Source of the DNA: Escherichia coli
GTDB taxonomy: Bacteria; Pseudomonadota; Gammaproteobacteria; Enterobacterales; Enterobacteriaceae
Length of the DNA: 64,000 nt
Assembly: GCF_024502345.1 (NCBI RefSeq)
Contig: NZ_JALDNN010000001.1
Direction: 5' to 3' (one strand)
Shown here: piece by piece, positions 4,157-48,298 of the stretch
How positions within the stretch are numbered: the first letter of the stretch is position 1
Layout: every line of letters starts with the position of its first letter
Notes under the pieces: generated by a model
Told to the model about the DNA's origin: nothing
The model's database searches: none
Seen by the model: only the letters and a program-made list of their open reading frames with translations
Position numbers and translations under genes: made by a program

Positions 4157-4169
4157 TACACTCCGGGGG

Positions 4170-9020: not shown

Positions 9021-9093
9021 CGTGGCTACCTCGGCCAGAGAACGAAGTTGATTATTCGCAATATGGCGTACAAATACGTTGAGAAGATTCGCG

Positions 9094-9930: not shown

Positions 9931-12943
<3,013 letters not shown>

Positions 12944-12947
12944 ACAC

Positions 12948-13190
12948 TGCCGGATGCGGCACAAGTGCCTTATCCGGCCTACAGGTCGGCAACAGTTTTA
13001 GGCCTGATAAGACGCGACATCGCATCAGGCATTGATTGCCGGATGCGGCACAAGTGCCTTATCCGGCCTACAGGTCGGCAATAGTTGTAGGCCTGATAAG
13101 ACGCGACAGCGTCGCATCAGGCATTGATTGCCGGATGCGGCACGAGCGCCTTATCCGGCCTACGGGTCGTGCATCCGACAACACCGAATT
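12948..13190. repeat. REP/BIME cluster, roughly 100-bp unit present in about 2.5 tandem copies
   Basis: Unit ccggatgcggcacaagtgccttatccggcctacaggtcggcaa...gtaggcctgataagacgcgac...gcatcaggcattgatt repeated between rhaA and rhaD. Confidence 0.75.
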
Positions 13191-13206
13191 TACAGGAACA
13201 CAGAAC

Positions 13207-14031: not shown

Positions 14032-14040
14032 GGAGCAAAC

Positions 14041-14355
14041 ATGATCCGCAAAGCCTTTGTCATGCAGGTAAACCCCGACGCCCACGAAGAGTATCAGCGT
14101 CGGCATAACCCCATCTGGCCGGAACTGGAAGCAGTGCTGAAATCTCACGGTGCGCATAACTACGCCATCTATCTCGACAAAGCGCGTAATCTGCTGTTTG
14201 CCATGGTAGAGATTGAATCTGAAGAACGCTGGAATGCGGTTGCCAGTACTGATGTTTGCCAACGTTGGTGGAAATATATGACCGATGTTATGCCCGCTAA
14301 CCCGGATAACAGCCCGGTGAGTAGCGAGCTGCAAGAAGTGTTTTACCTGCCTTAA
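14041..14355 (+). CDS. rhaM: L-rhamnose mutarotase, 104 aa
   Basis: [49 protein letters not shown]... Confidence 0.9.
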
Positions 14356-14361
14356 TGAGTT

Positions 14362-14390
14362 GCGGTGCCGGAAAATATCCAGCACCGCGC
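14362..14390. terminator. Bidirectional hairpin between convergent rhaM and porin gene
   Basis: gcggtgc-cggaaaatatcca-gcaccgc inverted repeat in the 40-bp gap between the two stops. Confidence 0.45.
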
Positions 14391-14395
14391 CTTCA

Positions 14396-15811
14396 TCAGA
14401 AGAAGTATTTAAAGCGAACGCGTGCGCCGTAACGGTCATCAGTATCATCACCGTGTTTTTTATCACCGTCGCTATCCAGAATGGAGTAATACGTCCCGAG
14501 GTAAATATTAAAGTTCTCCATATCCATCACATTAGCGAACTGATAAGACGCATGAATGGTGTGAATGGAGTACGTCCCTTCATCATCAATCCAGCAGTCG
14601 TTATCACAAACTACACCGCTGAATTCATCAATCTTATTGTGCGCGTAGATATAACCGAGCTCGAAACGTTTCCACAGCGCGTTAATCCCGGCAGTGAAAT
14701 CTTTCTCATTATTAGCATCTAAATAGGCGGTATTAAGATTAACCACAATGCCATTGTCCGGATCCGTTTTCAGGCCGTTCCAGGTCATGCTCATCCCATA
14801 GCCGGTACGATCGGACTGATCGACAAAATTACCCTTGCTATCGGTATAACCATAAGCATTATTTACCACGTTCGCTTCCATCGCTGCGGAAACGGTGAAT
14901 TCTTCCGTCGGCGACCAGGCAATTACTGGGCGCAGATAAGCAACATTTTTCTGCTGCTCCATATCGCGTCCATGATAATTACCGTCATTATATAAAGATG
15001 TTCCGTCTTCAAGTAACGTGTTTAATTCAAAATACCAGTTATCGAGTTGTTTGCTGACGAGGAAATTACCGCCAGCGTTAGAGCGCCCGCGGCCCTCTTT
15101 CATCATATAGATATAACCGCTGCCATCGTCATAAAGATCGTTCGCAGTATTACCGGAATGTTCAACAAAGGTATCCTGATTCAGCGGGAACATATCGTAG
15201 GCTTCAAAACGGCCTACTTTGACCTTCCAGTCGTTTTCTTTGCCAAAGAAGAATACCGCATCATCGATATTTACTGAACCGTGCATATCACCCAGCGGTT
15301 GTGCGGAGAACCCGGAGAAATAACCGTTGTCCATCTTTCGCATACCGTCAAAACCTAACAGAATACGACCATTGAGATTCCACTGTTCATTAGTGGGATC
15401 GCTATTCACATCAGCGTTGGTCATTGCCAGCAGGCCATGATTACTTTCCGCATCCATATTAAATTCTACGTCGCCGTAGATTTTTAAATCGCCATAACCT
15501 GAAAGCAAAAGATTAGGTGAGGTGGCATTTTTCTTTGCAGATTCCGCCGTTGCCTGTCCATTTACCGGCGTATTGCCCTGAGCGGCCTTAATTTCGCGGA
15601 TCTCAGCGGCTTGTTGTGTCTGCAGCTGTTTAACCTGGCTCTCTGCTTTTGCCGCCCGCATTTCTGCCGCTTCCAGGCGTTCTTCCAGCAATGCCATGCG
15701 TTGTTCCAGCAATGCCATGCGTTGTTCCAGCGTTAAATGCTGTGTTTTTGCCATACCGGTACTACATGCCAATAATAAACCGATGGCTAAAGATAATGTC
15801 GATTTTTTCAT
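14396..15811 (-). CDS. Putative outer-membrane sugar porin (ScrY/OprB-like beta-barrel) with signal peptide and N-terminal coiled-coil extension, 471 aa
   Basis: N-terminus MKKSTLSLAIGLLLACSTGMA (signal peptide), then heptad-rich LEQRMALLEQRMALLEERLEAAEMRAAKAESQVKQLQ, then Y/G/N/D-rich alternating segments and C-terminal ...RVRFKYFF typical of OM beta-barrels; SD aggga 9 nt upstream of ATG. Family assignment is from sequence features only. Confidence 0.7.
   Translation of the reverse strand: MKKSTLSLAIGLLLACSTGMAKTQHLTLEQRMALLEQRMALLEERLEAAEMRAAKAESQVKQLQTQQAAEIREIKAAQGNTPVNGQATAESAKKNATSPNLLLSGYGDLKIYGDVEFNMDAESNHGLLAMTNADVNSDPTNEQWNLNGRILLGFDGMRKMDNGYFSGFSAQPLGDMHGSVNIDDAVFFFGKENDWKVKVGRFEAYDMFPLNQDTFVEHSGNTANDLYDDGSGYIYMMKEGRGRSNAGGNFLVSKQLDNWYFELNTLLEDGTSLYNDGNYHGRDMEQQKNVAYLRPVIAWSPTEEFTVSAAMEANVVNNAYGYTDSKGNFVDQSDRTGYGMSMTWNGLKTDPDNGIVVNLNTAYLDANNEKDFTAGINALWKRFELGYIYAHNKIDEFSGVVCDNDCWIDDEGTYSIHTIHASYQFANVMDMENFNIYLGTYYSILDSDGDKKHGDDTDDRYGARVRFKYFF
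15685..15726 (-). repeat. Perfect 21-bp tandem duplication inside the porin coiled-coil region (encodes LEQRMAL twice)
   Basis: ccagcaatgccatgcgttgtt occurs twice consecutively (15685-15705 and 15706-15726), in frame. Confidence 0.9.
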
Positions 15812-16288
15812 TATTTACGTTCCCTGAAATAAAGGAGACCCTACGCTTTCCAAAAGGAATACGTATATAGAGAAATATAAGGTGTGCACTTTCGAATTTT
15901 TAATCCAACTTCAGCAGGCCGATGGATAGTATCCCGCCGCATAATATGAGTAAATCCGCTGATTTCCTGGAACGTGAGGAATATAACAATAGTGCCGTTT
16001 TTAACTAAATATCGTAAAAAATATTAGATATGATTCACGCTGACTCATAAGCCACAAATATAAATAACGTTTAGACAAATTATCTGAGACATTTAAACAT
16101 TCACAAAATCATTAAATAATAACTCTTTATTCACAAGATTTATTTTACCTACTAATATGTGCCTTACGCCGCAAAATTTATCCTTCACTCTGCTTTATAT
16201 TGTCACGACTTCACGACATATCCGCGCTCATCACAAACCCGCCCCGCTATTACAATTAACTGAAATATTTTTTCATGGAGTCCGATTA

Positions 16289-16735
16289 ATGGCAGCTCTT
16301 ACTGCAAGCTGTATTGACCTGAATATTCAGGGCAATGGCGCTTATTCCGTTCTGAAGCAGTTGGCGACAATGGCGTTACAAAACGGTTTTATCACCGACT
16401 CACACCAGTTCCTGCAAACCCTGCTGCTGCGCGAAAAAATGCACTCCACCGGTTTTGGTTCTGGTGTCGCCGTGCCGCACGGTAAAAGCGCCTGCGTTAA
16501 ACAACCGTTCGTGTTATTCGCCCGCAAAGCGCAGGCTATTGACTGGAAAGCCAGCGACGGCGAAGACGTCAATTGCTGGATCTGCCTCGGCGTACCGCAA
16601 AGTGGCGAAGAGGATCAGGTCAAAATCATCGGCACACTGTGTCGCAAAATTATTCACCAGGAATTTATTCATCAACTGCAACAGGGCGATACCGACCAGG
16701 TGCTTGCCTTGTTAAATCAAACCCTCAGCTCATAA
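16289..16735 (+). CDS. frvA: PTS fructose-like EIIA component, 148 aa
   Basis: Internal Met MAALTASCIDLNIQGNGAYSVLKQLA... of ORF 16157..16735; EIIA(Fru/Ntr) fold with HGKSACV. Confidence 0.85.
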   Translation: MAALTASCIDLNIQGNGAYSVLKQLATMALQNGFITDSHQFLQTLLLREKMHSTGFGSGVAVPHGKSACVKQPFVLFARKAQAIDWKASDGEDVNCWICLGVPQSGEEDQVKIIGTLCRKIIHQEFIHQLQQGDTDQVLALLNQTLSS

Positions 16736-16745
16736 GGAAGTGGCG

Positions 16746-18197
16746 ATGGAGTCATCCTTACGTATTGTCGCGATCACCAACTGCCCCGCCGGGATCGCTC
16801 ACACCTACATGGTGGCGGAAGCCCTGGAACAGAAAGCCCGTTCTCTCGGCCATACCATTAAAGTGGAAACTCAAGGATCGAGCGGCGTCGAAAACCGCTT
16901 ATCCAGCGAAGAGATTGCCGCCGCCGATTACGTCATTCTCGCTACCGGGCGTGGCCTGAGCGGTGATGATCGCGCGCGGTTTGCCGGGAAGAAAGTTTAT
17001 GAGATTGCCATCTCCCAGGCGTTGAAAAATATCGACCAGATTTTCAGCGAATTACCGACAAACTCGCAGCTTTTTGCCGCAGATAGCGGCGTGAAGCTTG
17101 GCAAACAGGAAGTGCAAAGCGGCAGCGTGATGAGCCACCTGATGGCGGGCGTCTCTGCGGCGCTGCCGTTTGTCATCGGCGGTGGTATCCTGGTGGCGCT
17201 TGCCAACATGCTGGTGCAGTTCGGTTTGCCGTATACCGATATGTCGAAAGGCGCGCCGTCGTTTACCTGGGTAGTTGAATCCATCGGTTACCTTGGCTTC
17301 ACCTTTATGATCCCCATCATGGGCGCTTATATTGCCTCGTCGATTGCCGATAAACCGGCTTTCGCTCCGGCGTTTCTGGTTTGCTATCTGGCGAACGACA
17401 AAGCGCTGCTCGGCACCCAGTCGGGTGCGGGATTCCTCGGCGCGGTGGTGCTGGGGCTGGCGATTGGCTATTTCGTCTTCTGGTTCCGCAAAGTGCGCCT
17501 TGGCAAAGCATTACAACCGCTGCTCGGTTCAATGCTGATCCCGTTCGTTACTCTGCTGGTTTTCGGCGTGCTCACTTACTACGTTATCGGGCCGGTGATG
17601 TCCGACCTCATGGGCGGGCTGCTCCACTTCCTGAATACCATTCCTCCATCAATGAAGTTTGCGGCAGCGTTTCTGGTCGGTGCGATGCTGGCGTTCGATA
17701 TGGGCGGCCCCATCAATAAAACCGCCTGGTTCTTCTGCTTCTCACTGCTGGAAAAACACATTTATGACTGGTACGCCATCGTCGGCGTTGTCGCGCTGAT
17801 GCCGCCCGTTGCGGCGGGTCTTGCGACGTTCATTGCGCCCAAACTGTTTACCCGACAGGAAAAAGAGGCTGCCAGTAGTGCCATTGTGGTAGGTGCCACA
17901 GTCGCAACCGAACCGGCTATACCTTACGCTCTGGCAGCTCCGTTGCCGATGATTACCGCCAATACGCTGGCGGGTGGCATTACCGGCGTGCTGGTGATCG
18001 CTTTCGGAATCAAACGTCTGGCACCTGGTTTGGGTATCTTTGACCCGCTGATCGGCCTGATGTCGCCGGTGGGTTCGTTTTATCTGGTGCTGGCGATTGG
18101 CCTCGCGCTGAACATTTCATTCATTATCGTCCTGAAAGGATTGTGGTTACGCCGCAAAGCGAAAGCCGCGCAACAGGAGCTTGTCCATGAACATTGA
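16746..18197 (+). CDS. frvB: PTS fructose-like EIIBC component, 483 aa
   Basis: ORF 16740..18197, MESSLRIVAITNCPAGIAHTYMVAEALE... (EIIB CPAG motif) followed by polytopic EIIC. Confidence 0.85.
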   Translation: MESSLRIVAITNCPAGIAHTYMVAEALEQKARSLGHTIKVETQGSSGVENRLSSEEIAAADYVILATGRGLSGDDRARFAGKKVYEIAISQALKNIDQIFSELPTNSQLFAADSGVKLGKQEVQSGSVMSHLMAGVSAALPFVIGGGILVALANMLVQFGLPYTDMSKGAPSFTWVVESIGYLGFTFMIPIMGAYIASSIADKPAFAPAFLVCYLANDKALLGTQSGAGFLGAVVLGLAIGYFVFWFRKVRLGKALQPLLGSMLIPFVTLLVFGVLTYYVIGPVMSDLMGGLLHFLNTIPPSMKFAAAFLVGAMLAFDMGGPINKTAWFFCFSLLEKHIYDWYAIVGVVALMPPVAAGLATFIAPKLFTRQEKEAASSAIVVGATVATEPAIPYALAAPLPMITANTLAGGITGVLVIAFGIKRLAPGLGIFDPLIGLMSPVGSFYLVLAIGLALNISFIIVLKGLWLRRKAKAAQQELVHEH

Positions 18198-19257
18198 GTT
18201 ACTGCAACAGTTGTGCGAAGCCAGCGCCGTCAGCGGCGATGAACAGGAAGTTCGCGACATTCTGATAAACACGCTGGAACCTTGCGTTAATGAGATCACC
18301 TTTGATGGTCTGGGCAGCTTTGTTGCCCGTAAGGGGAATAAAGGTCCAAAAGTTGCCGTTGTCGGGCATATGGATGAAGTCGGCTTTATGGTCACCCACA
18401 TCGACGAGAGCGGTTTTCTGCGTTTCACCACCATTGGTGGCTGGTGGAATCAGTCAATGCTCAACCACCGGGTAACCATACGCACACACAAGGGATTTAA
18501 AATCCCTGGTGTGATTGGTTCCGTCGCACCTCATGCGTTAACGGAAAAGCAAAAGCAACAGCCGCTGTCATTTGATGAGATGTTCATTGATATTGGCGCG
18601 AACAGTCGCGATGAGGTGGAAAAACGCGGTGTGGCGATGGGCGATTTTATTAGCCCGGAAGCCAATTTTGCCTGCTGGGGCGAAGATAAAGTGGTCGGCA
18701 AGGCGCTGGATAACCGCATCGGCTGCGCAATGATGGCTGAACTATTGCAGACGGTGAATAATCCCGAAATTACGCTGTATGGCGTCGGCAGCGTGGAAGA
18801 AGAAGTTGGGCTACGCGGGGCACAAACCTCGGCGGAACACATTAAACCGGATGTGGTGATTGTGCTGGATACCGCTGTCGCAGGTGATGTTCCGGGCATT
18901 GATAACATTAAATACCCGCTGAAACTGGGCCAGGGGCCGGGGCTGATGCTGTTTGACAAGCGCTACTTCCCCAACCAGAAACTGGTAGCAGCGTTTAAAA
19001 ACTGTGCCACGCAGAATGATTTACCGCTGCAATTTTCCACCATGAAAACCGGAGCGACGGATGGCGGGCGCTACAACGTGATGGGCGGCGGGCGTCCGGT
19101 TGTCGCGCTGTGTCTGCCAACTCGTTATCTGCACGCCAACAGCGGTATGATTTCAAAAGCCGATTACGATGCTCTGCTCACGCTGATACGGGGTTTTCTG
19201 ACCACCTTAACTGCGGAGAAAGTCAACGCGTTTAGCCAGTTCCGTCAGGTGGATTAA
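18187..19257 (+). CDS. frvX: M42-family aminopeptidase/endoglucanase-like FrvX, about 356 aa
   Basis: ORF 18181..19257 MSMNIELLQQLCEASAVSGDEQEVRDIL...; exact start among the first three codons uncertain. Confidence 0.8.
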   Translation: MNIELLQQLCEASAVSGDEQEVRDILINTLEPCVNEITFDGLGSFVARKGNKGPKVAVVGHMDEVGFMVTHIDESGFLRFTTIGGWWNQSMLNHRVTIRTHKGFKIPGVIGSVAPHALTEKQKQQPLSFDEMFIDIGANSRDEVEKRGVAMGDFISPEANFACWGEDKVVGKALDNRIGCAMMAELLQTVNNPEITLYGVGSVEEEVGLRGAQTSAEHIKPDVVIVLDTAVAGDVPGIDNIKYPLKLGQGPGLMLFDKRYFPNQKLVAAFKNCATQNDLPLQFSTMKTGATDGGRYNVMGGGRPVVALCLPTRYLHANSGMISKADYDALLTLIRGFLTTLTAEKVNAFSQFRQVD

Positions 19258-35226: not shown

Positions 35227-36000
35227 CTAGGGAAGAATGATTTCAATTTGGCTGTCTTGTAAGCGTGATTTTAGCGCAGCGGGCGGCAGCTCGTCGGTGA
35301 AGAGCGCGGTGACCTGTGCCACGTTACCAATTTCAACCGCCGCCGAAGCATGATACTTAGTGTGATCGGCGACCAGCAGGATATTTCTCGCGTGCGCCAT
35401 CATCGTTTTCACCACGTTAGCTTCGTTTACATCAAACTCCATCAACGCGCCATCGCTCTCGATTGCGCCTACGCTTGTTACCAGATAATCAGCACGAAAA
35501 TCGGCCACAAAGGACGCCGCTGAAGGGCCAATGATCCCGCTATTATGAGAGCGCAACGTACCGCCGGGCACCATCACTTCAAAGCGCGGGTTGTGGTAAA
35601 GAATATGCGCCACACGCAGGCTGTTGGTGATTATCCGCAAATGATTATGGTTAAGTAACGCCCGGGCGACATGCTCAACGGTCGTACCAATGGTGATAAA
35701 TATTGTTGAACCATCAGGAATATAGTCTGCCACCGCTTCGGCAATCGCTTTTTTTTCCTCGGTTTGCGAAACCTCACGCTGCTCGAACGCCGTATTAACG
35801 ACGCTGGAAGCCCGACCCGCGCCACCGTGATGGCGCGTAATCAGGCCTTGCTCGCTTAATTTACGAATATCCCGGCGCACCGTCTGCGTGGAGACATCCA
35901 GCAGATTTGCCAGCTCATCAATATTCATATACCCACGCTCGGCGATCAGCATGAGGAGTTGGTCGTGCCGCGGGTTACCGGTTAGTTCGGTAAGGCTCAT
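35227..36000 (-). CDS. yihW: DeoR-family repressor of the sulfoquinovose cluster (CsqR/YihW), about 257 aa
   Basis: ORF 35227..36024; start placed at internal Met MSLTELTGNPRHDQLLMLIAERGYMNIDELANLL by recollection of the K-12 protein. Confidence 0.8.
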   Translation of the reverse strand: MSLTELTGNPRHDQLLMLIAERGYMNIDELANLLDVSTQTVRRDIRKLSEQGLITRHHGGAGRASSVVNTAFEQREVSQTEEKKAIAEAVADYIPDGSTIFITIGTTVEHVARALLNHNHLRIITNSLRVAHILYHNPRFEVMVPGGTLRSHNSGIIGPSAASFVADFRADYLVTSVGAIESDGALMEFDVNEANVVKTMMAHARNILLVADHTKYHASAAVEIGNVAQVTALFTDELPPAALKSRLQDSQIEIILP

Positions 36001-36033
36001 GAAAATTCCTCGAAAAACCATCACCCTGGCATT

Positions 36034-36930
36034 TTATACAAAAAGTGACAAAAAAGATCGGGTTTGATCACAGTCAGGGATCCCGGCTCGTCCACCGGGA
36101 CGCGTGCATTTCAACGCCGCTACACCGCTGGCGAAGCGGACTGACTCCGCTAAATCCCCACCTGTTGCCAGCGCCACCGCCAATGCGCCGTGAAAAACAT
36201 CACCCGCACCTGTGGTATCTACCACATCAACTTTGAAGGCCGGTTGATGTTGACGCCCGCCATTTTCCAGCCAGTCACAGCCTGCGCTGCCCTGGGTCAC
36301 ATAGACATGACCATTTGTGAGCGTTTGTGCCTGTTTTAGCGCACTGGCCATCTCTTTCACACCCGTTAAGCGCGCCAGACCCGGTTCTGAAAAGGCCGCA
36401 TGATCGCTTAATGCCACCAGCTCGCTGATATCCTGCGGCGTAATATCACCGTCCAGAACGGTCATCACGCCCGCCTGCCGGGCCAGAGTGAAGGCTTTTT
36501 TAGCGCCGTCGTGCCAGCGTACATCTGCCAGCACAACATCCCACTGAGAGAAATCAATTTCCTCCAACCACTCTGCGTCAGGCAGCAGGTCCGGGCTGGG
36601 GTAGTTAATGATTATCCGCTCGCCTGTGGCATCCACCATGATGGCGGATTGCGATGATTTCGCCTGGTTATACCGTTTGGTGTAACGGGTGTTAACGCCC
36701 CAGGATTCCAGCTCTGCCAGCAGGCTGTTGCCCGTGTCGTCATCACCTACGCGACCCATAAAATCAACCTGCGCCCCCAGCCTTGCCGCCGCAACCGCTG
36801 CCGTCGCCGCTGGCCCGCCACCAACTTCCGTATAATTTCTCGCCACGTATTTACCGCTCTCCGTCGGTAACCCTTCCACGTAATAGATGCGATCCATCAC
36901 GGTTATACCTACACAAGCAACACGAATCAT
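36034..36930 (-). CDS. yihV: Sulfofructose kinase (PfkB family), 298 aa
   Basis: ORF 36034..36936; MIRVACVGITVMDRIYYVEGLPTESGKYVA..., ribokinase-like GAGD motif. Confidence 0.85.
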   Translation of the reverse strand: MIRVACVGITVMDRIYYVEGLPTESGKYVARNYTEVGGGPAATAAVAAARLGAQVDFMGRVGDDDTGNSLLAELESWGVNTRYTKRYNQAKSSQSAIMVDATGERIIINYPSPDLLPDAEWLEEIDFSQWDVVLADVRWHDGAKKAFTLARQAGVMTVLDGDITPQDISELVALSDHAAFSEPGLARLTGVKEMASALKQAQTLTNGHVYVTQGSAGCDWLENGGRQHQPAFKVDVVDTTGAGDVFHGALAVALATGGDLAESVRFASGVAALKCTRPGGRAGIPDCDQTRSFLSLFV

Positions 36931-37097
36931 GGTCATTCCTTAAACATTTTGGGATGCGTTCATTTTAATTTCACCAATTGTTTAAAAAGTGACGGCTGTC
37001 AATTTTTTGACTATAAATTACAAATACGATCAAAAACAGACAATCAAAGCGTGTCATAAATGACAAAAAGTGACATCGCTGTATTCAGGAGAAGGTT

Positions 37098-37994
37098 ATG
37101 GCAGCAATCGCGTTTATCGGTTTAGGACAAATGGGTTCGCCAATGGCGAGCAATTTATTGCAGCAAGGGCACCAACTTCGCGTCTTTGATGTGAATGCCG
37201 AGGCTGTGCGGCATCTGGTAGACAAAGGCGCGACTCCCGCCGCCAACCCGGCGCAGGCCGCTAAAGATGCCGAATTTATCATTACCATGTTGCCGAATGG
37301 CGATCTGGTGCGCAGCGTGTTGTTCGGTGAGAACGGCGTTTGCGAAAGCTTATCTACCGATGCGCTGGTCATTGATATGTCGACCATCCATCCGCTGCAA
37401 ACCGATAAATTGATTGCCGATATGCAAGCCAAAGGCTTCAGCATGATGGATGTTCCGGTAGGCCGTACTTCTGCAAATGCCATTACCGGTACTCTGTTAC
37501 TGCTGGCTGGCGGCACCGCTGAACAAGTTGAACGTGCCACGCCGATCCTGATGGCGATGGGCAGTGAGTTGATCAACGCTGGCGGTCCGGGCATGGGGAT
37601 CCGCGTTAAGCTCATCAACAACTATATGAGCATCGCACTCAATGCGCTTTCGGCAGAAGCTGCCGTTTTGTGCGAAGCCCTGAATCTTCCCTTCGATGTT
37701 GCCGTCAAAGTGATGAGCGGTACCGCCGCCGGTAAAGGCCACTTCACCACTTCCTGGCCAAACAAAGTCCTCAGCGGAGATCTTTCTCCCGCCTTCATGA
37801 TCGATCTTGCCCATAAGGATCTTGGCATCGCCCTTGATGTCGCCAACCAGCTGCATGTGCCAATGCCGCTGGGGGCCGCCTCACGGGAGGTTTATAGCCA
37901 GGCGCGCGCAGCGGGTCGCGGTCGCCAGGACTGGTCCGCCATTCTGGAACAGGTCCGTGTCAGTGCCGGGATGACTGCCAAAGTAAAAATGTAA
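37098..37994 (+). CDS. yihU: 3-sulfolactaldehyde reductase, 298 aa
   Basis: [40 protein letters not shown]..., NAD-binding GLGxMG. Confidence 0.9.
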
Positions 37995-38017: not shown

Positions 38018-38896
38018 ATGAATAAGTACACCATCAACGACATTACGCGCGCATCGGGCGGTTTTGCCATGCTGGCGGTCGATCAGCGCGAAGCCATGCG
38101 CATGATGTTTGCCGCGGCTGGGGCACCCGCTCCGGTAGCCGATAGCGTTTTAACTGATTTCAAAGTTAACGCGGCGAAGACCCTCTCGCCTTATGCCTCG
38201 GCGATTCTGGTAGATCAACAATTCTGTTACCGCCAGGTGGTTGAGCAAAACGCGATTGCCAAAAGTTGCGCCATGATTGTCGCCGCCGATGAGTTCATTC
38301 CTGGCAACGGTATTCCGGTAGATAGCGTGGTCATTGACCGCAAAATCAATCCGCTACAGATCAAACAAGACGGTGGCAAAGCCTTAAAACTGCTGGTGCT
38401 GTGGCGTAGTGATGAAGATGCGCAGCAACGCCTGGATATGGTGAAAGAGTTTAACGAACTGTGCCACTCACACGGCCTGGTAAGCATTATTGAGCCAGTC
38501 GTCCGCCCACCACGTCGTGGCGATAAATTCGATCGCGAACAAGCGATCATCGATGCCGCCAAAGAGCTGGGCGACAGTGGCGCTGACCTCTACAAAGTTG
38601 AAATGCCGCTTTACGGTAAAGGTCCGCAACAAGAGCTTCTCAGTGCTTCACAACGTCTGAATAACCATATCAATATGCCGTGGGTGATCCTCTCTTCCGG
38701 TGTCGACGAAAAACTGTTCCCGCGTGCCGTACGCGTGGCAATGACAGCGGGTGCATCGGGCTTCCTGGCTGGTCGTGCCGTCTGGGCATCGGTCGTCGGT
38801 TTACCAGACAACGAGTTGATGCTGCGTGACGTTTGTGCACCGAAATTACAACAACTGGGCGATATCGTCGACGAAATGATGGCTAAACGCCGTTAA
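38018..38896 (+). CDS. yihT: Sulfofructose-phosphate aldolase, 292 aa
   Basis: [34 protein letters not shown]... Confidence 0.9.
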
Positions 38897-38911: not shown

Positions 38912-40153
38912 ATGAAATGGTTTAACACTTTAAGTCACAACCGTTGGCTGGAACAGGAAACCGATCGCATCTTTGATTTTGGTAAAAATTCCGTAGTACC
39001 GACCGGATTTGGCTGGTTAGGCAATAAAGGGCAAATCAAAGAAGAGATGGGCACCCATCTGTGGATCACAGCTCGTATGTTGCACGTTTATTCCGTTGCT
39101 GCGGCGATGGGTCGACCTGGCGCTTACTCGTTGGTTGATCACGGTATTAAAGCCATGAACGGCGCACTGCGCGATAAAAAATATGGCGGCTGGTATGCCT
39201 GTGTGAATGACGAGGGCGTGGTGGATGCCTCCAAACAGGGCTATCAACATTTCTTTGCTCTGCTGGGTGCTGCCAGCGCCGTCACTACCGGTCATCCGGA
39301 AGCGCGCAAGCTGCTCGATTACACCATTGAAATTATCGAGAAATACTTCTGGAGCGAAGAAGAGCAGATGTGCCTGGAGTCCTGGGACGAAGCCTTCAGC
39401 AAAACCGAAGAGTACCGCGGCGGCAATGCCAATATGCACGCAGTGGAAGCTTTCTTAATTGTTTATGACGTAACGCATGACAAAAAATGGCTGGATCGCG
39501 CGATTCGCGTGGCTTCCGTGATTATCCACGACGTCGCAAGAAATAATCATTATCGCGTTAACGAACACTTCGATACCCAGTGGAATCCGCTGCCGGATTA
39601 CAACAAAGATAACCCGGCGCACCGCTTCCGCGCGTTCGGAGGTACACCAGGCCACTGGATCGAATGGGGCCGTTTAATGCTGCACATCCACGCGGCCCTG
39701 GAAGCCCGTTGCGAACAACCGCCAGCATGGTTGCTAGAAGATGCCAAAGGTCTGTTTAACGCCACCGTGCGTGATGCCTGGGCACCCGATGGTGCGGACG
39801 GGATTGTTTATACCGTTGACTGGGAAGGAAAACCGGTGGTCCGCGAACGTGTGCGTTGGCCTATCGTCGAAGCGATAGGTACGGCCTACGCGCTCTACAC
39901 CGTCACCGGCGATCGCCAGTATGAAACCTGGTATCAGACATGGTGGGACTACTGCATTAAGTACCTGATGGACTATGAAAATGGTTCCTGGTGGCAGGAG
40001 CTGGATGCGGACAATAAAGTCACCACGAAAGTCTGGGACGGCAAACAGGATATTTATCACCTGCTGCATTGCCTGGTGATCCCGCGTATCCCGTTAGCGC
40101 CAGGCCTGGCTCCGGCAGTTGCGGCGGGTCTGCTGGATATTAACGCGAAATAA
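38912..40153 (+). CDS. yihS: Sulfoquinovose isomerase (AGE-family epimerase/isomerase), 413 aa
   Basis: [43 protein letters not shown]... Confidence 0.9.
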
Positions 40154-40333
40154 CTGACTAAAAAAAAACGACATATCAGGCTGCACGCCGGGTATGTCGT
40201 TATTCAATAAAGGTACCTCGTATGCAAATCACCAACATGCATTGCAGTGGACAGACCGTTTCACTTGCCGCGGGGGATTATCACGCGACCATTGTGACCG
40301 TCGGTGCAGGTCTGGCTGAATTAACCTTTCAGG

Positions 40334-41554
40334 TGTAGATTCAATTGGTCAACGCAACAGTTATGTGAAAACATGGGGTTGCGGAGGTTTTTTGAATGAG
40401 ACGAACATTTACAGCAGAGGAAAAAGCCTCTGTTTTTGAACTATGGAAGAACGGAACAGGCTTCAGTGAAATAGCGAATATCCTGGGTTCAAAACCCGGA
40501 ACGATCTTCACTATGTTAAGGGATACTGGCGGCATAAAACCCCATGAGCGTAAGCGGGCTGTAGCTCACCTGACACTGTCTGAGCGCGAGGAGATACGAG
40601 CTGGTTTGTCAGCCAAAATGAGCATTCGTGCGATAGCTACTGCGCTGAATCGCAGTCCTTCGACGATCTCACGTGAAGTTCAGCGTAATCGGGGCAGACG
40701 CTATTACAAAGCTGTTGATGCTAATAACCGAGCCAACAGAATGGCGAAAAGGCCAAAACCGTGCTTACTGGATCAAAATTTACCATTGCGAAAGCTTGTT
40801 CTGGAAAAGCTGGAGATGAAATGGTCTCCAGAGCAAATATCAGGATGGTTAAGGCGAACAAAACCACGTCAAAAAACGCTGCGAATATCACCTGAGACAA
40901 TTTATAAAACGCTGTACTTTCGTAGCCGTGAAGCGCTACACCACCTGAATATACAGCATCTGCGACGGTCGCATAGCCTTCGCCATGGCAGGCGTCATAC
41001 CCGCAAAGGCGAAAGAGGTACGATTAACATAGTGAACGGAACACCAATTCACGAACGTTCCCGAAATATCGATAACAGACGCTCTCTGGGGCATTGGGAG
41101 GGCGATTTAGTCTCAGGTACAAAAAACTCTCATATAGCCACACTTGTAGACCGAAAATCACGTTATACGATCATCCTTAGACTCAGGGGCAAAGATTCTG
41201 TCTCAGTAAATCAGGCTCTTACCGACAAATTCCTGAGTTTACCGTCAGAACTCAGAAAATCACTGACATGGGACAGAGGAATGGAACTGGCCAGACATCT
41301 AGAATTTACTGTCAGCACCGGCGTTAAAGTTTACTTCTGCGATCCTCAGAGTCCTTGGCAGCGGGGAACAAATGAGAACACAAATGGGCTAATTCGGCAG
41401 TACTTTCCTAAAAAGACATGTCTTGCCCAATATACTCAACATGAACTAGATCTGGTTGCTGCTCAGCTAAACAACAGACCGAGAAAGACACTGAAGTTCA
41501 AAACACCGAAAGAGATAATTGAAAGGGGTGTTGCATTGACAGATTGAATCTACA
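40334..41554 (+). mobile_element. IS30 insertion sequence, 1221 bp, with 2-bp target-site duplication GG
   Basis: Terminal inverted repeats tgtagattcaattggtcaacgcaacag (left) and gtgttgcattgacagattgaatctaca (right); GG at 40332-40333 and 41555-41556; contains 383-aa transposase ORF. Confidence 0.92.
40396..41547 (+). CDS. insI: IS30 transposase, 383 aa
   Basis: ORF MRRTFTAEEKASVFELWKNGTGFSEIANILGSKPGTIFTMLRDTGGIKPHERKRAV...; DDE motif region HWEGDLV. Confidence 0.9.
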   Translation: MRRTFTAEEKASVFELWKNGTGFSEIANILGSKPGTIFTMLRDTGGIKPHERKRAVAHLTLSEREEIRAGLSAKMSIRAIATALNRSPSTISREVQRNRGRRYYKAVDANNRANRMAKRPKPCLLDQNLPLRKLVLEKLEMKWSPEQISGWLRRTKPRQKTLRISPETIYKTLYFRSREALHHLNIQHLRRSHSLRHGRRHTRKGERGTINIVNGTPIHERSRNIDNRRSLGHWEGDLVSGTKNSHIATLVDRKSRYTIILRLRGKDSVSVNQALTDKFLSLPSELRKSLTWDRGMELARHLEFTVSTGVKVYFCDPQSPWQRGTNENTNGLIRQYFPKKTCLAQYTQHELDLVAAQLNNRPRKTLKFKTPKEIIERGVALTD

Positions 41555-42407
41555 GGGCTGTCATTTAGTTATTCCACATAAACCCGAAGAGATGCCGCTG
41601 GCACATCTGGGCAAAGTCCTTATTCCGTGGCCGAACCGGATCGCCAACGGCTGTTATCGCTATCAGGGGCAGGAATATCAGTTACCCATTAATGAACATG
41701 GTTCAAAAGCCGCTATTCATGGGCTGCTCGCCTGGCGTGACTGGCAAATCAGCGAATTAACCGCCACCAGCGTTACCCTGACAGCTTTTCTGCCACCCAG
41801 TTACGGCTATCCGTTTATGCTGGCTTCGCAGGTTGTTTATTCGCTCAATGCACGCACGGGTCTTTCCGTTGAGATCGCAAGTCAGAATATTGGTACTGTG
41901 ACCGCACCCTATGGTGTGGGTATTCATCCTTATTTAACCTGCAACTTAACATCTGTTGATGAATATCTGTTCCAGCTTCCGGCAAACCAGGTTTATGCCG
42001 TCGATGAGCACGCTAATCCGACAACGCTTCACCACGTTGATGAGCTGGATTTAAATTTCACGCAGGCGAAAAAAATAGCCGCGACAAAAATCGACCACAC
42101 CTTTAAAACCGCTAATGATCTGTGGGAAATAACCATTACCCATCCACAACAGGCGCTTTCGGTAAGCCTTTGTTCCGATCAACCCTGGGTGCAGATTTAT
42201 AGCGGCGAAAAATTACAGCGTCAGGGACTGGCAGTTGAACCTATGAGTTGCCCACCTAACGCCTTTAATTCAGGTCTCGACTTATTATTACTGGAACCAG
42301 GGAAAACGCACCGCCTGTTTTTTAATATTTACGGGCAGCACAATTAATTTTATTAAGAAAAGAACGAGATCATTGTTTAGGGTTGTATTTACACAACAGG
42401 AAATATC

Positions 42408-43283
42408 ATGGACTTTTTTACGTTATTTTCACCGGATGGGGTCATGCTGGAAACAAACGTGGTATGTATCGTTATCGCGTTAATGTTTCTTTATACCTTT
42501 GTGGGGATATGCGCGGGATTTGGCGGTGGTTTAACCACCATGCCGCTCGTCACGTTAATGCTCCCCGTAAAAATGGCAACTCCGCTCTCGGTGATTGTCG
42601 GCACCGCGACCGCCTTGTACGCCACCTGGCTGTCACGTAAAGAAACGGATTGGCGATCGGCAATGGTACTGATTATTTTCTCGTTTCTGGGAATACCCGT
42701 CGGTTTATATGCGCTGTCATATTTACCCGACCATTTTATGAAAGTGGGCTTAGGCGGATTCCTTATCCTGTACTCCTTTTACAGTATGTTTATTCCACGC
42801 CTGCCGATTTATGACCGCAACTGGATCGCCGCACCTATCGGCGCTGTGGCAGGAGCGTTAGGGGCAGCGTTTTCAACCAACGGACCGCCGATGGTTATCT
42901 ACGGTATGCTGCGTAACTTAGGCCCGGCGGCATTTCGTGGCACTCTGAACGCTTTCTTCACCGCAAACAACATCGCGGTGATCGGCGGGCTGGCGACCAG
43001 CGGAATTTTGACTGTTTCTATCTTTAAACTGGTGCTGTTTTGTATTCCCACCATGATCCTCGGTTCACTGGTTGGACAATATGTGCATAAACGCATTTCA
43101 GTCAAAGTGTTCCGTGTGATGGTCTTTTTGTTGCTGATTGCCTCCGGTTCTATGTTGATAAAAGGCGCGCTGGGAATTCCCGCTGCTGCCGCGCTTCTGC
43201 CTCCTTTTACCTTGTTAGTTATACTGCAACTGGCATTTGGTAAAAAAGTGGCGGCAATCCGCCGGGCTGAAGAAAGTAAATAA
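42408..43283 (+). CDS. TauE/SafE-family (DUF81) membrane permease, putative sulfite/sulfonate exporter, 291 aa
   Basis: ORF MDFFTLFSPDGVMLETNVVCIVIALMFLYTFVGICAGFGGGLTTMPLV...; multiple TM segments with the glycine-rich motif (AGFGGG..P) typical of TauE/SafE proteins; SD aggaaa before ATG. Confidence 0.7.
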   Translation: MDFFTLFSPDGVMLETNVVCIVIALMFLYTFVGICAGFGGGLTTMPLVTLMLPVKMATPLSVIVGTATALYATWLSRKETDWRSAMVLIIFSFLGIPVGLYALSYLPDHFMKVGLGGFLILYSFYSMFIPRLPIYDRNWIAAPIGAVAGALGAAFSTNGPPMVIYGMLRNLGPAAFRGTLNAFFTANNIAVIGGLATSGILTVSIFKLVLFCIPTMILGSLVGQYVHKRISVKVFRVMVFLLLIASGSMLIKGALGIPAAAALLPPFTLLVILQLAFGKKVAAIRRAEESK

Positions 43284-43391
43284 TCACTTATGCGGGTTTT
43301 AATTTATACCAGCACCACATTCTTTAATTAATGAAACCTGTAACAACAGGATGGCATGAAATATTAGCTTTATACTCTATGGAGATTATTT

Positions 43392-45424
43392 ATGGATACG
43401 CCACGCCCACAATTACCAGATTTTCAGTTTCATCAGAATAACGACAGTTTTACCCTACATTTTCAACAGCGTCTTATTTTAACCCATAGCAAAGATAATC
43501 CTTGTTTATGGATTGGTTCAGGTATTGCGGATATCGATATGTTCCGCGGCAATTTCAGCATTAAAGATAAACTACAGGAGAAAATTGCGCTTACCGACGC
43601 CATCGTCAGCCAGTCGCCGGATGGTTGGTTAATCCATTTCAGCCGTGGTTCTGACATTAGCGCCACGCTGAATATCTCTGCCGACGATCAGGGCCGTTTA
43701 TTGCTGGAACTACAAAACGACAACCTTAACCACAACCGTATCTGGCTGCGCCTTGCCGCTCAACCAGAGGACCATATCTACGGCTGCGGCGAACAGTTTT
43801 CCTACTTCGATCTGCGTGGCAAACCGTTCCCGCTATGGACCAGTGAACAAGGCGTTGGTCGCAATAAACAAACCTATGTCACCTGGCAGGCCGACTGCAA
43901 AGAAAATGCGGGCGGCGACTATTACTGGACTTTCTTCCCACAGCCTACGTTTGTCAGCACGCAGAAGTATTACTGCCATGTTGATAACAGTTGCTATATG
44001 AACTTCGACTTTAGTGCCCCGGAATACCATGAACTGGCGCTGTGGGAAGACAAAGCAACGCTGCGTTTTGAATGTGCTGACACATACATCTCCCTGCTGG
44101 AAAAATTAACCGCCCTGCTGGGACGCCAGCCAGAACTGCCCGACTGGATTTATGACGGAGTAACGCTCGGCATTCAGGGCGGGACGGAAGTGTGCCAGAA
44201 GAAACTGGACACCATGCGTAACGCGGGCGTGAAGGTCAACGGCATCTGGGCGCAGGACTGGTCCGGTATTCGTATGACCTCTTTTGGCAAACGCGTGATG
44301 TGGAACTGGAAGTGGAACAGCGAAAACTACCCGCAACTGGATTCGCGTATCAAGCAGTGGAACAAAGAGGGCGTGCAGTTCCTTGCCTATATCAACCCGT
44401 ATGTTGCCAGTGATAAAGATCTCTGCGAAGAGGCGGCAAAGCGCGGTTATCTGGCAAAAGATGTCGCCGGTGGCGACTATCTGGTGGAGTTTGGCGAGTT
44501 CTACGGCGGCGTTGTCGATCTCACCAATCCGGAAGCCTACGCCTGGTTCAAGGAAGTTATCAAAAAGAACATGATTGAACTCGGCTGCGGCGGCTGGATG
44601 GCTGACTTCGGCGAGTATCTGCCCACCGACACGTACCTGCATAACGGCATCAGCGCGGAAATTATGCATAACGCCTGGCCCGCGCTGTGGGCGAAATGTA
44701 ACTACGAAGCCTTGAAGAAACGGGCAAGCTCGGCGAGATCCTCTTCTTTATGCGCGCCGGTTCTACCGGTAGCCAGAAATACTCCACCATGATGTGGGCG
44801 GGTGACCAGAACGTGGACTGGAGTCTGGACGATGGCCTGGCGTCGGTTGTCCCGGCGGCGCTATCTCTGGCAATGACCGGACATGGCCTGCATCACAGCG
44901 ACATTGGCGGTTATACCACCCTGTTTGAGATGAAGCGCAGCAAAGAGCTGCTGCGCTGGTGCGATTTCAGCGCCTTCACGCCGATGATGCGCACCCACGA
45001 AGGTAACCGTCCTGGCGACAACTGGCAGTTTGACGGCGACGCGGAAACCATCGCCCATTTCGCCCGTATGACCACCGTCTTCACCACCCTGAAACCTTAC
45101 CTGAAAGAGGCCGTCGCGCTGAATGCGAAGTCCGGCCTGCCGGTTATGCGCCCGCTGTTCCTGCATTACGAAGACGACGCGCAGACCTATTCCCTGAAAT
45201 ATCAGTACCTGTTAGGTCGCGACATTCTGATTGCTCCGGTACACGAAGAAGGTCGCAGCGACTGGACGCTCTATCTGCCAGAGGATAACTGGGTCCACGC
45301 CTGGACCGGAGAAACCTTCCACGGTGGAGAAATAACTGTTGAAGCGCCCATCGGCAAGCCGCCGGTCTTTTATCGCGCCGACAGCGAATGGGCTGCACTG
45401 TTCGCCTCGTTAAAAAACATCTAA
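43392..45424 (+). pseudogene. yihQ: GH31 sulfoquinovosidase yihQ carrying a 1-bp frameshift near 44714
   Basis: ORF 43392..44792 (466 aa) and out-of-frame ORF 44750..45424 (224 aa) together cover one ~678-aa GH31 protein; reading cttgaagaaacg as cttgGaagaaacg restores a single frame (...NYEALEETGKLGEILFFMRAGSTGSQ...). Confidence 0.75.
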
Positions 45425-45469
45425 TCATGCCCGCCCGTGGGGAAACTCACGGGCAAATGGAGAATAACG

Positions 45470-46855
45470 ATGAGTCACATCACAACGGAAGATCCGGCAA
45501 CTTTGCGCCTGCCCTTTAAAGAGAAACTCTCTTACGGTATCGGCGATCTGGCCTCTAACATCCTGCTGGATATTGGTACGCTTTATCTTTTGAAGTTTTA
45601 TACCGACGTTCTGGGGCTACCTGGCACCTATGGCGGCATTATCTTTTTGATCTCGAAATTCTTTACCGCCTTTACCGATATGGGAACCGGCATCATGTTG
45701 GATTCCCGGCGTAAGATTGGCCCGAAAGGTAAGTTCCGCCCTTTCATTTTGTACGCGTCATTCCCGGTCACCTTATTGGCAATCGCTAACTTTATCGGCA
45801 CACCGTTCGATGTCACTGGTAAAACGGTGATGGCCACTATTCTATTTATGCTCTACGGGCTGTTTTTCAGCATGATGAACTGCTCCTACGGCGCAATGGT
45901 TCCCGCCATTACCAAAAACCCCAACGAACGCGCATCGCTGGCGGCATGGCGTCAGGGTGGTGCTACATTGGGCCTGCTGCTGTGTACGGTGGGATTCGTG
46001 CCGGTGATGAACCTTATCGAAGGTAATCCGCAACTGAGCTACGTTTTCGCCGCCACGCTATTTTCACTGTTCGGCCTGCTGTTTATGTGGATCTGCTACT
46101 CGGGCGTGAAAGAGCGTTATGTCGAAACCCAACCTGCTAATCAGGCGCAAAAGCCAGGCTTGCTGCAATCTTTCCGCGCAATTGCCGGTAACCGCCCACT
46201 GTTCATTCTGTGTATTGCCAACCTCTGCACCTTAGGGGCGTTTAACGTCAAGCTCGCCATTCAGGTCTATTACACCCAGTACGTGCTTAACGATCCCATC
46301 CTGTTGTCGTATATGGGATTTTTTAGCATGGGCTGTATTTTCATCGGCGTGTTCCTGATGCCTGGCGCAGTTAGACGTTTTGGTAAGAAGAAGGTCTATA
46401 TCGGCGGCCTGCTGATTTGGGTGCTTGGCGATCTGCTCAACTATTTCTTCGGCGGCGGCTCGGTCAGTTTTGTGGCGTTCTCCTGCCTGGCATTCTTTGG
46501 CTCGGCGTTTGTTAACAGCCTGAACTGGGCGCTGGTTTCCGACACCGTCGAGTACGGCGAGTGGCGCACCGGTGTCCGTTCTGAAGGGACGGTCTACACC
46601 GGCTTCACCTTCTTTCGCAAAGTGTCTCAGGCGCTGGCTGGTTTCTTCCCCGGCTGGATGCTGACGCAAATCGGCTATGTGCCGAACGTGGCGCAGGCTG
46701 ACCACACCATTGAAGGGTTGCGCCAGCTGATCTTCATCTACCCAAGCGCACTGGCGGTAGTCACCATTGTGGCGATGGGTTGCTTCTACAGTCTGAACGA
46801 GAAGATGTACGTCCGCATTGTTGAAGAAATAGAAGCCCGTAAACGCACGGCGTAA
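45470..46855 (+). CDS. yihP: GPH-family (sugar:cation symporter) transporter, 461 aa
   Basis: ORF 45437..46855; start MSHITTEDPATLRLPFKEKLSYGIGDLASN with SD aatggaga. Confidence 0.85.
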   Translation: MSHITTEDPATLRLPFKEKLSYGIGDLASNILLDIGTLYLLKFYTDVLGLPGTYGGIIFLISKFFTAFTDMGTGIMLDSRRKIGPKGKFRPFILYASFPVTLLAIANFIGTPFDVTGKTVMATILFMLYGLFFSMMNCSYGAMVPAITKNPNERASLAAWRQGGATLGLLLCTVGFVPVMNLIEGNPQLSYVFAATLFSLFGLLFMWICYSGVKERYVETQPANQAQKPGLLQSFRAIAGNRPLFILCIANLCTLGAFNVKLAIQVYYTQYVLNDPILLSYMGFFSMGCIFIGVFLMPGAVRRFGKKKVYIGGLLIWVLGDLLNYFFGGGSVSFVAFSCLAFFGSAFVNSLNWALVSDTVEYGEWRTGVRSEGTVYTGFTFFRKVSQALAGFFPGWMLTQIGYVPNVAQADHTIEGLRQLIFIYPSALAVVTIVAMGCFYSLNEKMYVRIVEEIEARKRTA

Positions 46856-46894
46856 TAATAAACGACGCCCTGCGGGGCGTTATAAGGAGTGATT

Positions 46895-48298
46895 ATGTCT
46901 GACCATAATCCACTGACATTAAAACTGAATCTGCGGGAAAAAATCGCCTATGGTATGGGCGACGTTGGTTCGAATTTAATGCTTAGCATCGGTACTCTGT
47001 ATCTCCTCAAATTTTATACCGATGAATTAGGGATGCCAGCTTACTATGGCGGGATTATCTTTCTGGTGGCGAAGTTTTTTACCGCGTTTACCGATATGCT
47101 CACCGGATTTTTACTCGACTCGCGGAAAAATATTGGGCCTAAAGGCAAATTTCGTCCCTTTATTTTATATGCAGCGGTTCCGGCGGCGTTAATTGCAACG
47201 CTCCAGTTTATCGCCACCACTTTTAGTTTGCCGGTTAAAACGACGATTGCCACGGCGCTGTTTATGATGTTTGGGCTTTCATACAGTCTGATGAACTGCT
47301 CGTATGGCGCGATGATCCCGGCAATTACCAAAAACCCGAATGAGCGCGCGCAGCTCGCTGCTTACCGCCAGGGTGGTGCAACCATAGGGCTATTGATTTG
47401 TACCGTGGCGTTTATTCCGTTGCAGTCGCTTTTTTCTGACTCAACCGTCGGTTATGCCTGTGCGGCACTTATGTTCTCCATTGGCGGCTTTATTTTTATG
47501 ATGCTGTGCTACAGAGGCGTCAAAGAGCATTATGTGGACACAGCGCCAACCGGACATAAAGCCAGTATTCTCAAATCATTTTGCGCGATATTTCGGAATC
47601 CGCCATTGCTGGTTTTATGCATTGCTAACTTGTGTACCCTGGCGGCATTTAATATCAAACTGGCGATTCAGGTCTATTACACCCAGTATGTGCTGCATGA
47701 TATTAATTTATTGTCGTGGATGGGATTCTTCAGTATGGGATGCATCCTCATCGGCGTATTACTGGTGCCATTAACTGTAAAATGTTTTGGTAAAAAACAG
47801 GTTTATTTAGCTGGCATGGTGCTATGGGCGGTTGGTGATATCCTGAATTATTTCTGGGGAAGTAACTCTTTCACTTTCGTCATGTTCTCTTGTGTCGCCT
47901 TTTTTGGCACGGCCTTTGTAAACAGCCTGAACTGGGCGCTGGTACCAGATACCGTAGATTACGGTGAATGGAAAACCGGTATTCGTGCCGAAGGTTCTGT
48001 TTATACCGGTTATACCTTCTTTCGTAAAATTTCTGCCGCACTTGCTGGCTTCTTGCCAGGCATTATGCTGACGCAAATCGGTTATGTTCCCAACATCGCG
48101 CAAAGTGATGCGACATTACAGGGTTTGCGTCAGCTCATTTTTATCTGGCCTTGTGCACTGGCAATTATTGCTGCATTGACGATGGGATTCTTTTACACAC
48201 TCAATGAAAAACGGTTTGCGTTGATTATTGAGGAAATCAACCAACGCAAAAATAAAGAAATTGAGACAGAAGAAAAAACGGCTTCCGTAACGTTATAA
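46895..48298 (+). CDS. yihO: GPH-family sulfoquinovose transporter, 467 aa (paralog of yihP)
   Basis: ORF 46889..48298; start MSDHNPLTLKLNLREKIAYGMGDVGSNLML with SD aaggag 5 nt upstream. Confidence 0.85.
   Translation: MSDHNPLTLKLNLREKIAYGMGDVGSNLMLSIGTLYLLKFYTDELGMPAYYGGIIFLVAKFFTAFTDMLTGFLLDSRKNIGPKGKFRPFILYAAVPAALIATLQFIATTFSLPVKTTIATALFMMFGLSYSLMNCSYGAMIPAITKNPNERAQLAAYRQGGATIGLLICTVAFIPLQSLFSDSTVGYACAALMFSIGGFIFMMLCYRGVKEHYVDTAPTGHKASILKSFCAIFRNPPLLVLCIANLCTLAAFNIKLAIQVYYTQYVLHDINLLSWMGFFSMGCILIGVLLVPLTVKCFGKKQVYLAGMVLWAVGDILNYFWGSNSFTFVMFSCVAFFGTAFVNSLNWALVPDTVDYGEWKTGIRAEGSVYTGYTFFRKISAALAGFLPGIMLTQIGYVPNIAQSDATLQGLRQLIFIWPCALAIIAALTMGFFYTLNEKRFALIIEEINQRKNKEIETEEKTASVTL

Follow-up and report, generated by a model that had tools for sequence, protein, structure and literature searches.

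A TauE/SafE-family permease gene in the sulfoquinovose cluster of Escherichia coli, absent from K-12, as a candidate exporter of 2,3-dihydroxypropane-1-sulfonate

Introduction

The sulfoglycolytic variant of the Embden-Meyerhof-Parnas route (sulfo-EMP) in Escherichia coli is the reference model for the breakdown of sulfoquinovose (SQ), a process of large flux both in the gut and in the sulfur cycle. Which protein releases its end product, 2,3-dihydroxypropane-1-sulfonate (DHPS), from the cell? This question is raised anew by a stretch of 64,000 nucleotides of an E. coli genome (assembly GCF_024502345.1, contig NZ_JALDNN010000001.1; hereafter the window), in which the SQ (yih) cluster carries, between yihR and yihQ, a gene for a permease of the TauE/SafE family. 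The gene, referred to as tauE in the following, is missing from the same place in K-12. Based on its conservation and its genomic contexts, we propose that its product is most likely a DHPS exporter.

The literature on sulfo-EMP in E. coli and Salmonella describes the ten-gene cluster of K-12 and gives YihP the role of putative DHPS exporter, an assignment made by default, since K-12 offers no other candidate. As the original prediction for this locus had supposed, no role of tauE in the pathway of either organism is assigned in the searchable literature, to which Denger et al. 2014 (Nature) does not belong. One paper calls the Salmonella operon 'syntenic' and leaves the extra gene unmentioned, a 2025 study of yih cassette variants in 413 strains distinguishes long and short forms only, and the published RNA-seq experiments used K-12, which is devoid of tauE, and Nissle.

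Results

An intact TauE-family permease is encoded between yihR and yihQ

The reading frame of tauE (Table 1) starts with ATG and comprises 291 codons and a stop, with zero internal stops. Its DNA is 100% identical to that of the RefSeq-annotated WP_000345434.1, 'sulfite exporter TauE/SafE family protein'. An HMM search against Pfam-A returned a full-length match to PF01925 (TauE), covering residues 23-248 and positions 2-235 of the 237 positions of the model (E 4.7e-35, 121.8 bits), and the same domain is carried by 120/120 homologues among the matches listed. The translation displays the glycine-rich motifs of the family, GICAGFGGGLT at residues 33-43 and GAVAGALGAAFSTNGPP at residues 145-161. 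Within an alignment of 61 family members, G37-F38-G39 is invariant, and G145, G149, and G159-P160-P161 are invariant or nearly so. The gene product is thus an intact permease of the TSUP/TauE family, and the original prediction of an intact 291-residue polytopic protein with the TauE/SafE signature at this position is borne out by reading frame, domain match, motifs, and structural model alike.

This model, computed with AlphaFold2 on the basis of 61 homologues, is all-helical and polytopic (mean pLDDT 93, pTM 0.88). It consists of a first set of five helical segments (16-36, 40-49, 54-75, 82-105, and 108-128), a second, parallel set of five (138-155, 159-168, 173-198, 203-227, and 232-255), and an extra C-terminal helix (259-290). 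For the internal 4+4 repeat expected of this family of about 8 transmembrane helices, a comparison of the two halves gave no significant similarity at the sequence or profile level (BLASTP E 19; hhalign E 0.09, though in register). No solved structure related to the protein was retrieved by sequence or profile search, and no match reaching E 0.001 was obtained with Foldseek of the model against the PDB. The TSUP/TauE family appears to be without an experimental structure. A weak fold resemblance to BacA/UppP (5oon and 6fmt; TM 0.43-0.50, E ~0.02) was observed in the same comparison.

tauE is probably an old member of the cluster and K-12 carries the other of two haplotypes

In K-12 MG1655, yihQ (b3878) and yihR (b3879) are adjacent and separated by a 198-bp spacer with no coding sequence, in agreement with the original prediction. 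Relative to K-12, tauE is consequently an extra gene. The notion of an insertion into the window strain did not hold, since the arrangement proved ancestral on comparison with Salmonella and Escherichia whittamii. Salmonella enterica has the order yihR-tauE-yihQ in the same slot of the orthologous chromosomal site, with matching flanks (yihX, yihY, and dtd to one side and ompL and typA-glnA to the other), and more than 23,000 blocks of the assembly collection contain its TauE protein. E. whittamii shares the order of the window. The identity between window and Salmonella is 87% for TauE, in the same range as for YihQ (87%), YihU (88%), and YihT (88%). Among Escherichia alleles, tauE shows a ratio of nonsynonymous to synonymous substitution rates (dN/dS) of 0.014-0.055; between Escherichia and Salmonella, dN amounts to 0.08-0.09 with synonymous sites being saturated. 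The gene is under strong purifying selection. On the most parsimonious reading of these comparisons, tauE would have belonged to the yih cluster for a long time and been kept there by selection, and the K-12-type haplotype would be derived.

Within the species, tauE is present in 1335/5426 complete genomes. The long cassette, using yihQ as its marker, is found in 3909 genomes of this set, and the junction typical of K-12 in 2642. The long cassette therefore exists in essentially two haplotypes, ~34% with and ~66% without tauE. Strains with tauE include enterotoxigenic E. coli (ETEC) H10407, O157:H7, and Ecol_448. The allele of the window is 100% identical at the DNA level to that of many strains, among them ETEC H10407, whereas 2-3% of its nucleotides are different in the alleles of O157 and Ecol_448.

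The homology between K-12 and the window ends at window position 42338 and resumes at 43328 (8273 and 8419 of the retrieved K-12 locus, blastn). The intervening 989 bp are replaced in K-12-type strains by an AT-rich filler of 145 bp (8274-8418 of the retrieved locus), which reaches 99% identity or more in 2371 of its 2642 carrier genomes. Neither the replaced 989 bp nor the Salmonella segment showed significant similarity to the filler with blastn-short or in a shuffle test, in which 257-502 of 2000 shuffles reached the observed score. Its interpretation as a deletion scar was rejected accordingly, and an apparent resemblance to the ribosome-binding site and start codon in a MAFFT alignment was given no weight. 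The loss of tauE in K-12-type strains is thus deduced from the outgroups alone, without a recognisable scar. A foreign origin of the K-12 haplotype was likewise dropped. Its YihR is 96% identical to that of alleles with tauE, a distance similar to those among the latter, so that YihR is simply fast-evolving and nothing suggests foreign import.

The TauE clade is found in two types of sulfoquinovose cluster

Among 1.84 billion representatives at 50% identity, a single full-length cluster corresponds to the protein, and the next relatives share at most 38% identity with it. Identity within this clade is 77-87%, and 13 members from different genera reach a mean column identity of 84%, C-terminal extension included. 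The two nearest relatives outside the clade that were checked lie in unrelated contexts and were uninformative. The contexts of clade members were sampled at 14 non-E. coli loci as well as within E. coli, together ~15 genera; a contig scan with the single protein reached close relatives only (5 loci), and wider taxa were accessed by look-ups of exact proteins. Every member examined sits in an SQ cluster (14/14 non-E. coli loci and the E. coli strains checked). As far as sampled, the clade is restricted to Enterobacterales and Vibrio.

A sulfo-EMP context is found in E. coli, E. whittamii, Salmonella, the Enterobacteriaceae strain RIT691, and Klebsiella, with tauE standing after yihQ in RIT691 and Klebsiella quasipneumoniae. 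The other members belong to a different type of operon, in which tauE is the last gene. This type occurs in Hafnia, Mixta, Morganella, Kluyvera, Raoultella, Enterobacter kobei, and Edwardsiella and was assigned in Leminorella and Vibrio owensii by matching gene order. The unit comprises nine genes (24-9888 of the retrieved loci in Hafnia). One strand encodes a LacI regulator along with an SSF transporter, and the other, in this order, an IlvD/Edd dehydratase (PF00920), an HpcH aldolase (PF03328), an aldose epimerase, an SMP-30-type lactonase, an HIBADH-type reductase, an SDR, and TauE. The SDR matches PDB entry 9gwu, 'Sulfoquinovose 1-dehydrogenase', over its full length (323 bits, E 7e-96), with the next PDB match at 201 bits. 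PF00920 and PF03328 are families reported for the sulfoglycolytic variant of the Entner-Doudoroff route (sulfo-ED), and a mutarotase is one of its known components. Considering these three lines together, we read the unit as a sulfo-ED operon. It would end in a reductase, unlike that of Pseudomonas putida with its sulfolactaldehyde (SLA) dehydrogenase, and it is devoid of a sulfoquinovosidase. A sulfo-ED variant ending in an HIBADH-type reductase was not found described in the literature searched.

The reductases of these operons are 27-31% identical to YihU and carry His174 and Val/Gly178 at the positions of Asn174 and Ser178 in the sulfonate pocket of YihU, which suggests either a different mode of sulfonate binding or the use of another aldehyde.

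Further loci of the sample add to this picture. E. kobei harbors both cluster types ~1.4 kb apart with genes related to the type VI secretion system in between (95-18876 of the retrieved locus), and its sulfo-EMP cluster has no yihR and no tauE of its own, so that one TauE would serve both clusters. The yih cluster of K. quasipneumoniae encodes TauE together with one MFS protein, which is closer to YihO (74%) than to YihP (68%). The sulfo-ED operon of Kluyvera and of Raoultella adjoins typA-glnA (9945-13600), as does the yih cluster in E. coli, and this neighbourhood seems to be a hot spot for alternative SQ modules.

Discussion

Export of DHPS is the favored function

The clusters of the sulfo-EMP and sulfo-ED types have no catabolic enzyme orthologues in common, and each type has its own sugar-type importer, YihO/YihP of the MFS_2 family or the SSF transporter. 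What both types share is a distantly related mutarotase, an HIBADH-type reductase, and a TauE that is ~80% identical, the latter being their sole common transporter. As the steps common to both pathways are the anomerisation of SQ and the disposal of a C3 sulfonate, TauE is favored as the exporter of DHPS. The presence of TauE in Klebsiella, where YihP is absent, fits this reading, and so does the single TauE for two clusters in E. kobei. It also agrees with published work, in which TauE-type proteins are the predicted exporters of sulfolactate (SL) or DHPS in P. putida SQ1, Rhizobium, Bacillus (SftE), and Arthrobacter AK04, and in which yihO, yihS, yihV, yihT, and yihU, and not yihP, are given as the K-12 mutants negative for growth on SQ.

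In the proposed mechanism, TauE would act as an inner-membrane TSUP/TauE permease and native part of the enterobacterial SQ cluster. It would expel DHPS, the anionic C3 end product supplied by YihU, with the efflux being powered by the anion gradient and the membrane potential. We infer the substrate, the direction of transport, the co-transcription with the cluster, and any redundancy with or priority over YihP. The idea of a dedicated DHPS exporter, put forward in the original prediction, is well backed by the finding of the clade exclusively in SQ clusters, of two pathways, and has to be restricted in that such an exporter is not generally required. According to the literature and to genome comparison, K-12 uses SQ for growth and releases DHPS although it is devoid of tauE, which makes the gene dispensable for growth on SQ at least in K-12 and an accessory rather than a core component. 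K-12 and about two-thirds of the long-cassette E. coli must export DHPS in another way.

Several further points weigh against DHPS export by TauE. The loss of the gene is tolerated, the filler junction being found in 2642 genomes as against 1335 with tauE. Transport, expression, or mutant data for members of the clade were not found in the searchable literature. NCBIfam holds no specific model that matches the protein, and with no relative above 38% identity outside the clade, homology cannot give the substrate. The TSUP family is poorly characterised and named after an uptake permease, so that direction does not follow from the family either. Finally, DHPS is the end product of the sulfo-EMP clusters with YihU, and that of the sulfo-ED operons is only predicted, their reductase lacking the Asn174/Ser178 pocket. 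Taking both sides together, we regard the assignment of TauE as DHPS exporter as moderately probable.

Alternative functions

A broader role would be that of an efflux valve for organosulfonates or sulfite, protecting the cell at high flux from sulfolactaldehyde, sulfolactate, sulfosugar intermediates, or sulfite. The family name and the PGAP annotation as sulfite exporter speak for it, as do the predictions for TauE-type proteins elsewhere, which comprise SL, DHPS, or 3-sulfopropionate as substrates, and the absence of the YihU sulfonate pocket from the sulfo-ED reductase, which leaves the end product of that operon uncertain. The gene lists examined for both cluster types, however, show no obvious desulfonating, i.e., sulfite-releasing, enzyme, so sulfite is not to be expected as a product and the label 'sulfite exporter' is probably wrong; moreover, both types encode an HIBADH-type reductase suited to the synthesis of DHPS, and the mean column identity of 84% suggests a specific substrate. 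We therefore consider such a valve improbable. Transport in the opposite direction, i.e., the import of SQ, sulfoquinovosyl-glycerol, or another sulfonated substrate, has to be discussed because the founding member of TSUP is thought to be a 4-toluene sulfonate uptake permease and because tauE sits, in E. coli and Salmonella, between the genes of mutarotase and sulfoquinovosidase and thus among early-pathway genes. Yet every cluster already possesses a dedicated importer (YihO, genetically required in K-12, or the SSF protein beside LacI), SQ uptake in K-12 proceeds without tauE, and in the sulfo-ED operons the gene comes last, after reductase and dehydrogenase. This makes an importer rather unlikely.

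Two-thirds of the long-cassette E. coli do without tauE, the surrounding cluster is decaying in the window, and IS1 copies lie in or beside the gene in some strains, all of which would suit a passenger or decaying accessory gene without any role in SQ metabolism and with a merely historical linkage. This account is hard to uphold against a dN/dS of 0.01-0.06 and a frame kept intact since the split of E. coli and Salmonella. The recruitment of the gene to the clusters of two SQ pathways, where it follows either yihR or yihQ or closes the sulfo-ED operon, is likewise difficult to explain without a pathway-linked function, and we give the passenger account little credence.

Going beyond DHPS export as such, one may speculate that in enterobacterial sulfoglycolysis the native exporter of DHPS is TauE rather than YihP. 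Both YihO and YihP would then be importers, e.g., of SQ and SQ-glycerol, the K-12 cluster, which underlies the textbook pathway and the annotation of YihP as DHPS exporter, would be a derived deletion variant releasing DHPS by a non-dedicated route, and the exporter module would be shared with a widespread sulfo-ED variant of Enterobacterales and Vibrio ending in DHPS. This wider scenario is tentative, and we judge it to be wrong somewhat more readily than right.

Relation to known transporters and significance

The closest functional parallels are the 'SL exporter' of the sulfo-ED clusters of P. putida SQ1 and Rhizobium leguminosarum, SftE of Bacillus aryabhattai and gut Firmicutes (sulfoglycolytic transaldolase pathway), and the TauE of Arthrobacter AK04 (sulfo-EMP). 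Where stated, these belong to PF01925 as well. Like the enterobacterial clade, they are permeases encoded within a cluster for SQ catabolism and are proposed to expel a C3 sulfonate, the export role being predicted in each case. According to our library search they are presumably at most 38% identical to the clade, which is set apart from them by its extra conserved C-terminal helix 259-290. TauE of Cupriavidus necator H16 and SafE, the founding exporters of sulfite and sulfoacetate in the TSUP family, have the family assignment by Pfam HMM and the glycine-rich motifs in common with the protein studied here. There are no taurine or sulfoacetate genes near the latter. The same Pfam family also includes YfcA, a housekeeping TSUP protein of E. 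coli, and the JGI label 'uncharacterized membrane protein YfcA' on several clade members is a family-level name only. Unlike yfcA, tauE is accessory, lies at a different locus, and is tied to SQ clusters.

YihP (b3877, 'putative 2,3-dihydroxypropane-1-sulfonate export protein') resides in the same cluster and is proposed for the same step. Unlike TauE, it belongs to the unrelated MFS_2/GPH family and shares 64-66% identity with YihO, the importer of SQ. Proteins of this family are typically cation:glycoside symporters. Genetic or transport evidence for export by YihP was not found in the literature searched.

The ancestral form of the cluster, as represented by Salmonella and a third of the long-cassette E. 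coli, offers a TauE-type alternative for the export step, making K-12 an incomplete and probably derived reference for the pathway. The textbook statement that YihP exports DHPS is thereby open to an inexpensive check via tauE. DHPS released in the gut feeds sulfite- and H2S-producing bacteria, so differences between strains in the exporter could affect this cross-feeding. The novelty is limited, as the gene is annotated in RefSeq and exporters of the TauE type are regularly predicted for other sulfoglycolysis clusters; the familiarity of TauE in SQ clusters, the existing annotation, and the dispensability in K-12 moderate the weight of the finding.

The sulfoquinovose cluster of the window

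In the window, the long yih cassette is arranged as csqR-yihV / yihU-T-S-R-tauE-yihQ-P-O-ompL (Table 1).

Table 1. Coordinates of the yih cluster and of the polymorphic segment in the window (position 1 is the first nucleotide of the 64,000)
Feature	Position	Strand	Basis or remark
csqR (yihW) and yihV, divergent unit	35227-36936	-	ORF list, annotated relative
yihU, SLA reductase making DHPS	37098-37994	+	upstream of tauE, same strand
yihT	38018-38896	+	upstream of tauE, same strand
yihS	38912-40153	+	upstream of tauE, same strand
yihR 5' fragment (SQ mutarotase), cut by IS30	40222-40333	+	coordinates from strain 510016; blastn vs K-12
IS30, 1221 bp, inside yihR; transposase ORF 40396-41547	40334-41554	+	99.8-99.9% match to IS30
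yihR 3' fragment	41555-42347	+	ORF list, blastn
Polymorphic segment, 989 bp; 145-bp unrelated filler instead in K-12-type strains	42339-43327	.	blastn breakpoints
yihR-tauE spacer, 60 bp	42348-42407	+	sequence; promoter/terminator scan
tauE-like gene, 291 aa and stop	42408-43283	+	ORF list, Pfam, RefSeq identity
tauE-yihQ spacer, 108 bp	43284-43391	+	common to K-12 from 43328 on
yihQ (sulfoquinovosidase), pseudogene	43392-45424	+	aligned with the intact gene of strain 510016
yihP, MFS_2/GPH-family permease, putative DHPS exporter of the literature	45437-46855	+	
yihO, MFS_2/GPH-family permease, SQ importer	46889-48298	+	64-66% identical to YihP

Directly 5' of the tauE start codon, the spacer to yihR carries AGGAAATATC, a likely ribosome-binding site. 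A scan of the plus strand from yihR to yihQ detected no promoter- or terminator-like site, which is consistent with co-transcription, and tauE is probably transcribed together with yihU-T-S-R and yihQ-P-O. In the window strain, a polar effect of the IS30 located upstream on tauE is possible. This element is inserted ~112 bp into yihR, and its junction is absent from the complete E. coli genomes of RefSeq. A second defect affects yihQ, where a 1-bp deletion (CCC to CC) near 44710 shifts the frame and divides the gene into the reading frames 43392-44792 and 44750-45424; in comparison with strain 510016, an in-frame 3-bp deletion (CTG) near 44947 was found in addition. With yihR disrupted and yihQ frameshifted, the SQ cluster of the window looks to be decaying, tauE still being intact. 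As for yihP, its true start is probably near 45470 and not at the annotated position.

Apart from the two deletions, yihQ shows zero substitutions relative to strain 510016 up to 45229, followed by 21 mismatches in the last ~190 bp. This pattern looks like a recombination breakpoint near the 3' end of the gene (45230-45424). A perfect palindrome, CCTGTAACAACAGG, is located at 43337-43350, 42 bp upstream of yihQ. It was not found in Salmonella or the other loci compared, and it is kept as CCTGTWAYAACAGG in 5/5 Escherichia loci checked, K-12 included, where it may serve as a regulatory site or form a small hairpin.

Activity of insertion sequences is frequent around the yih cluster. The chicken strains PK8277 and PK8217 carry IS1 within the yihR-tauE-yihQ stretch, and strain 510016 has an IS1 behind a shortened yihO, with ompL and yihN missing and the yihM homologue truncated (13921-15498 of its locus).

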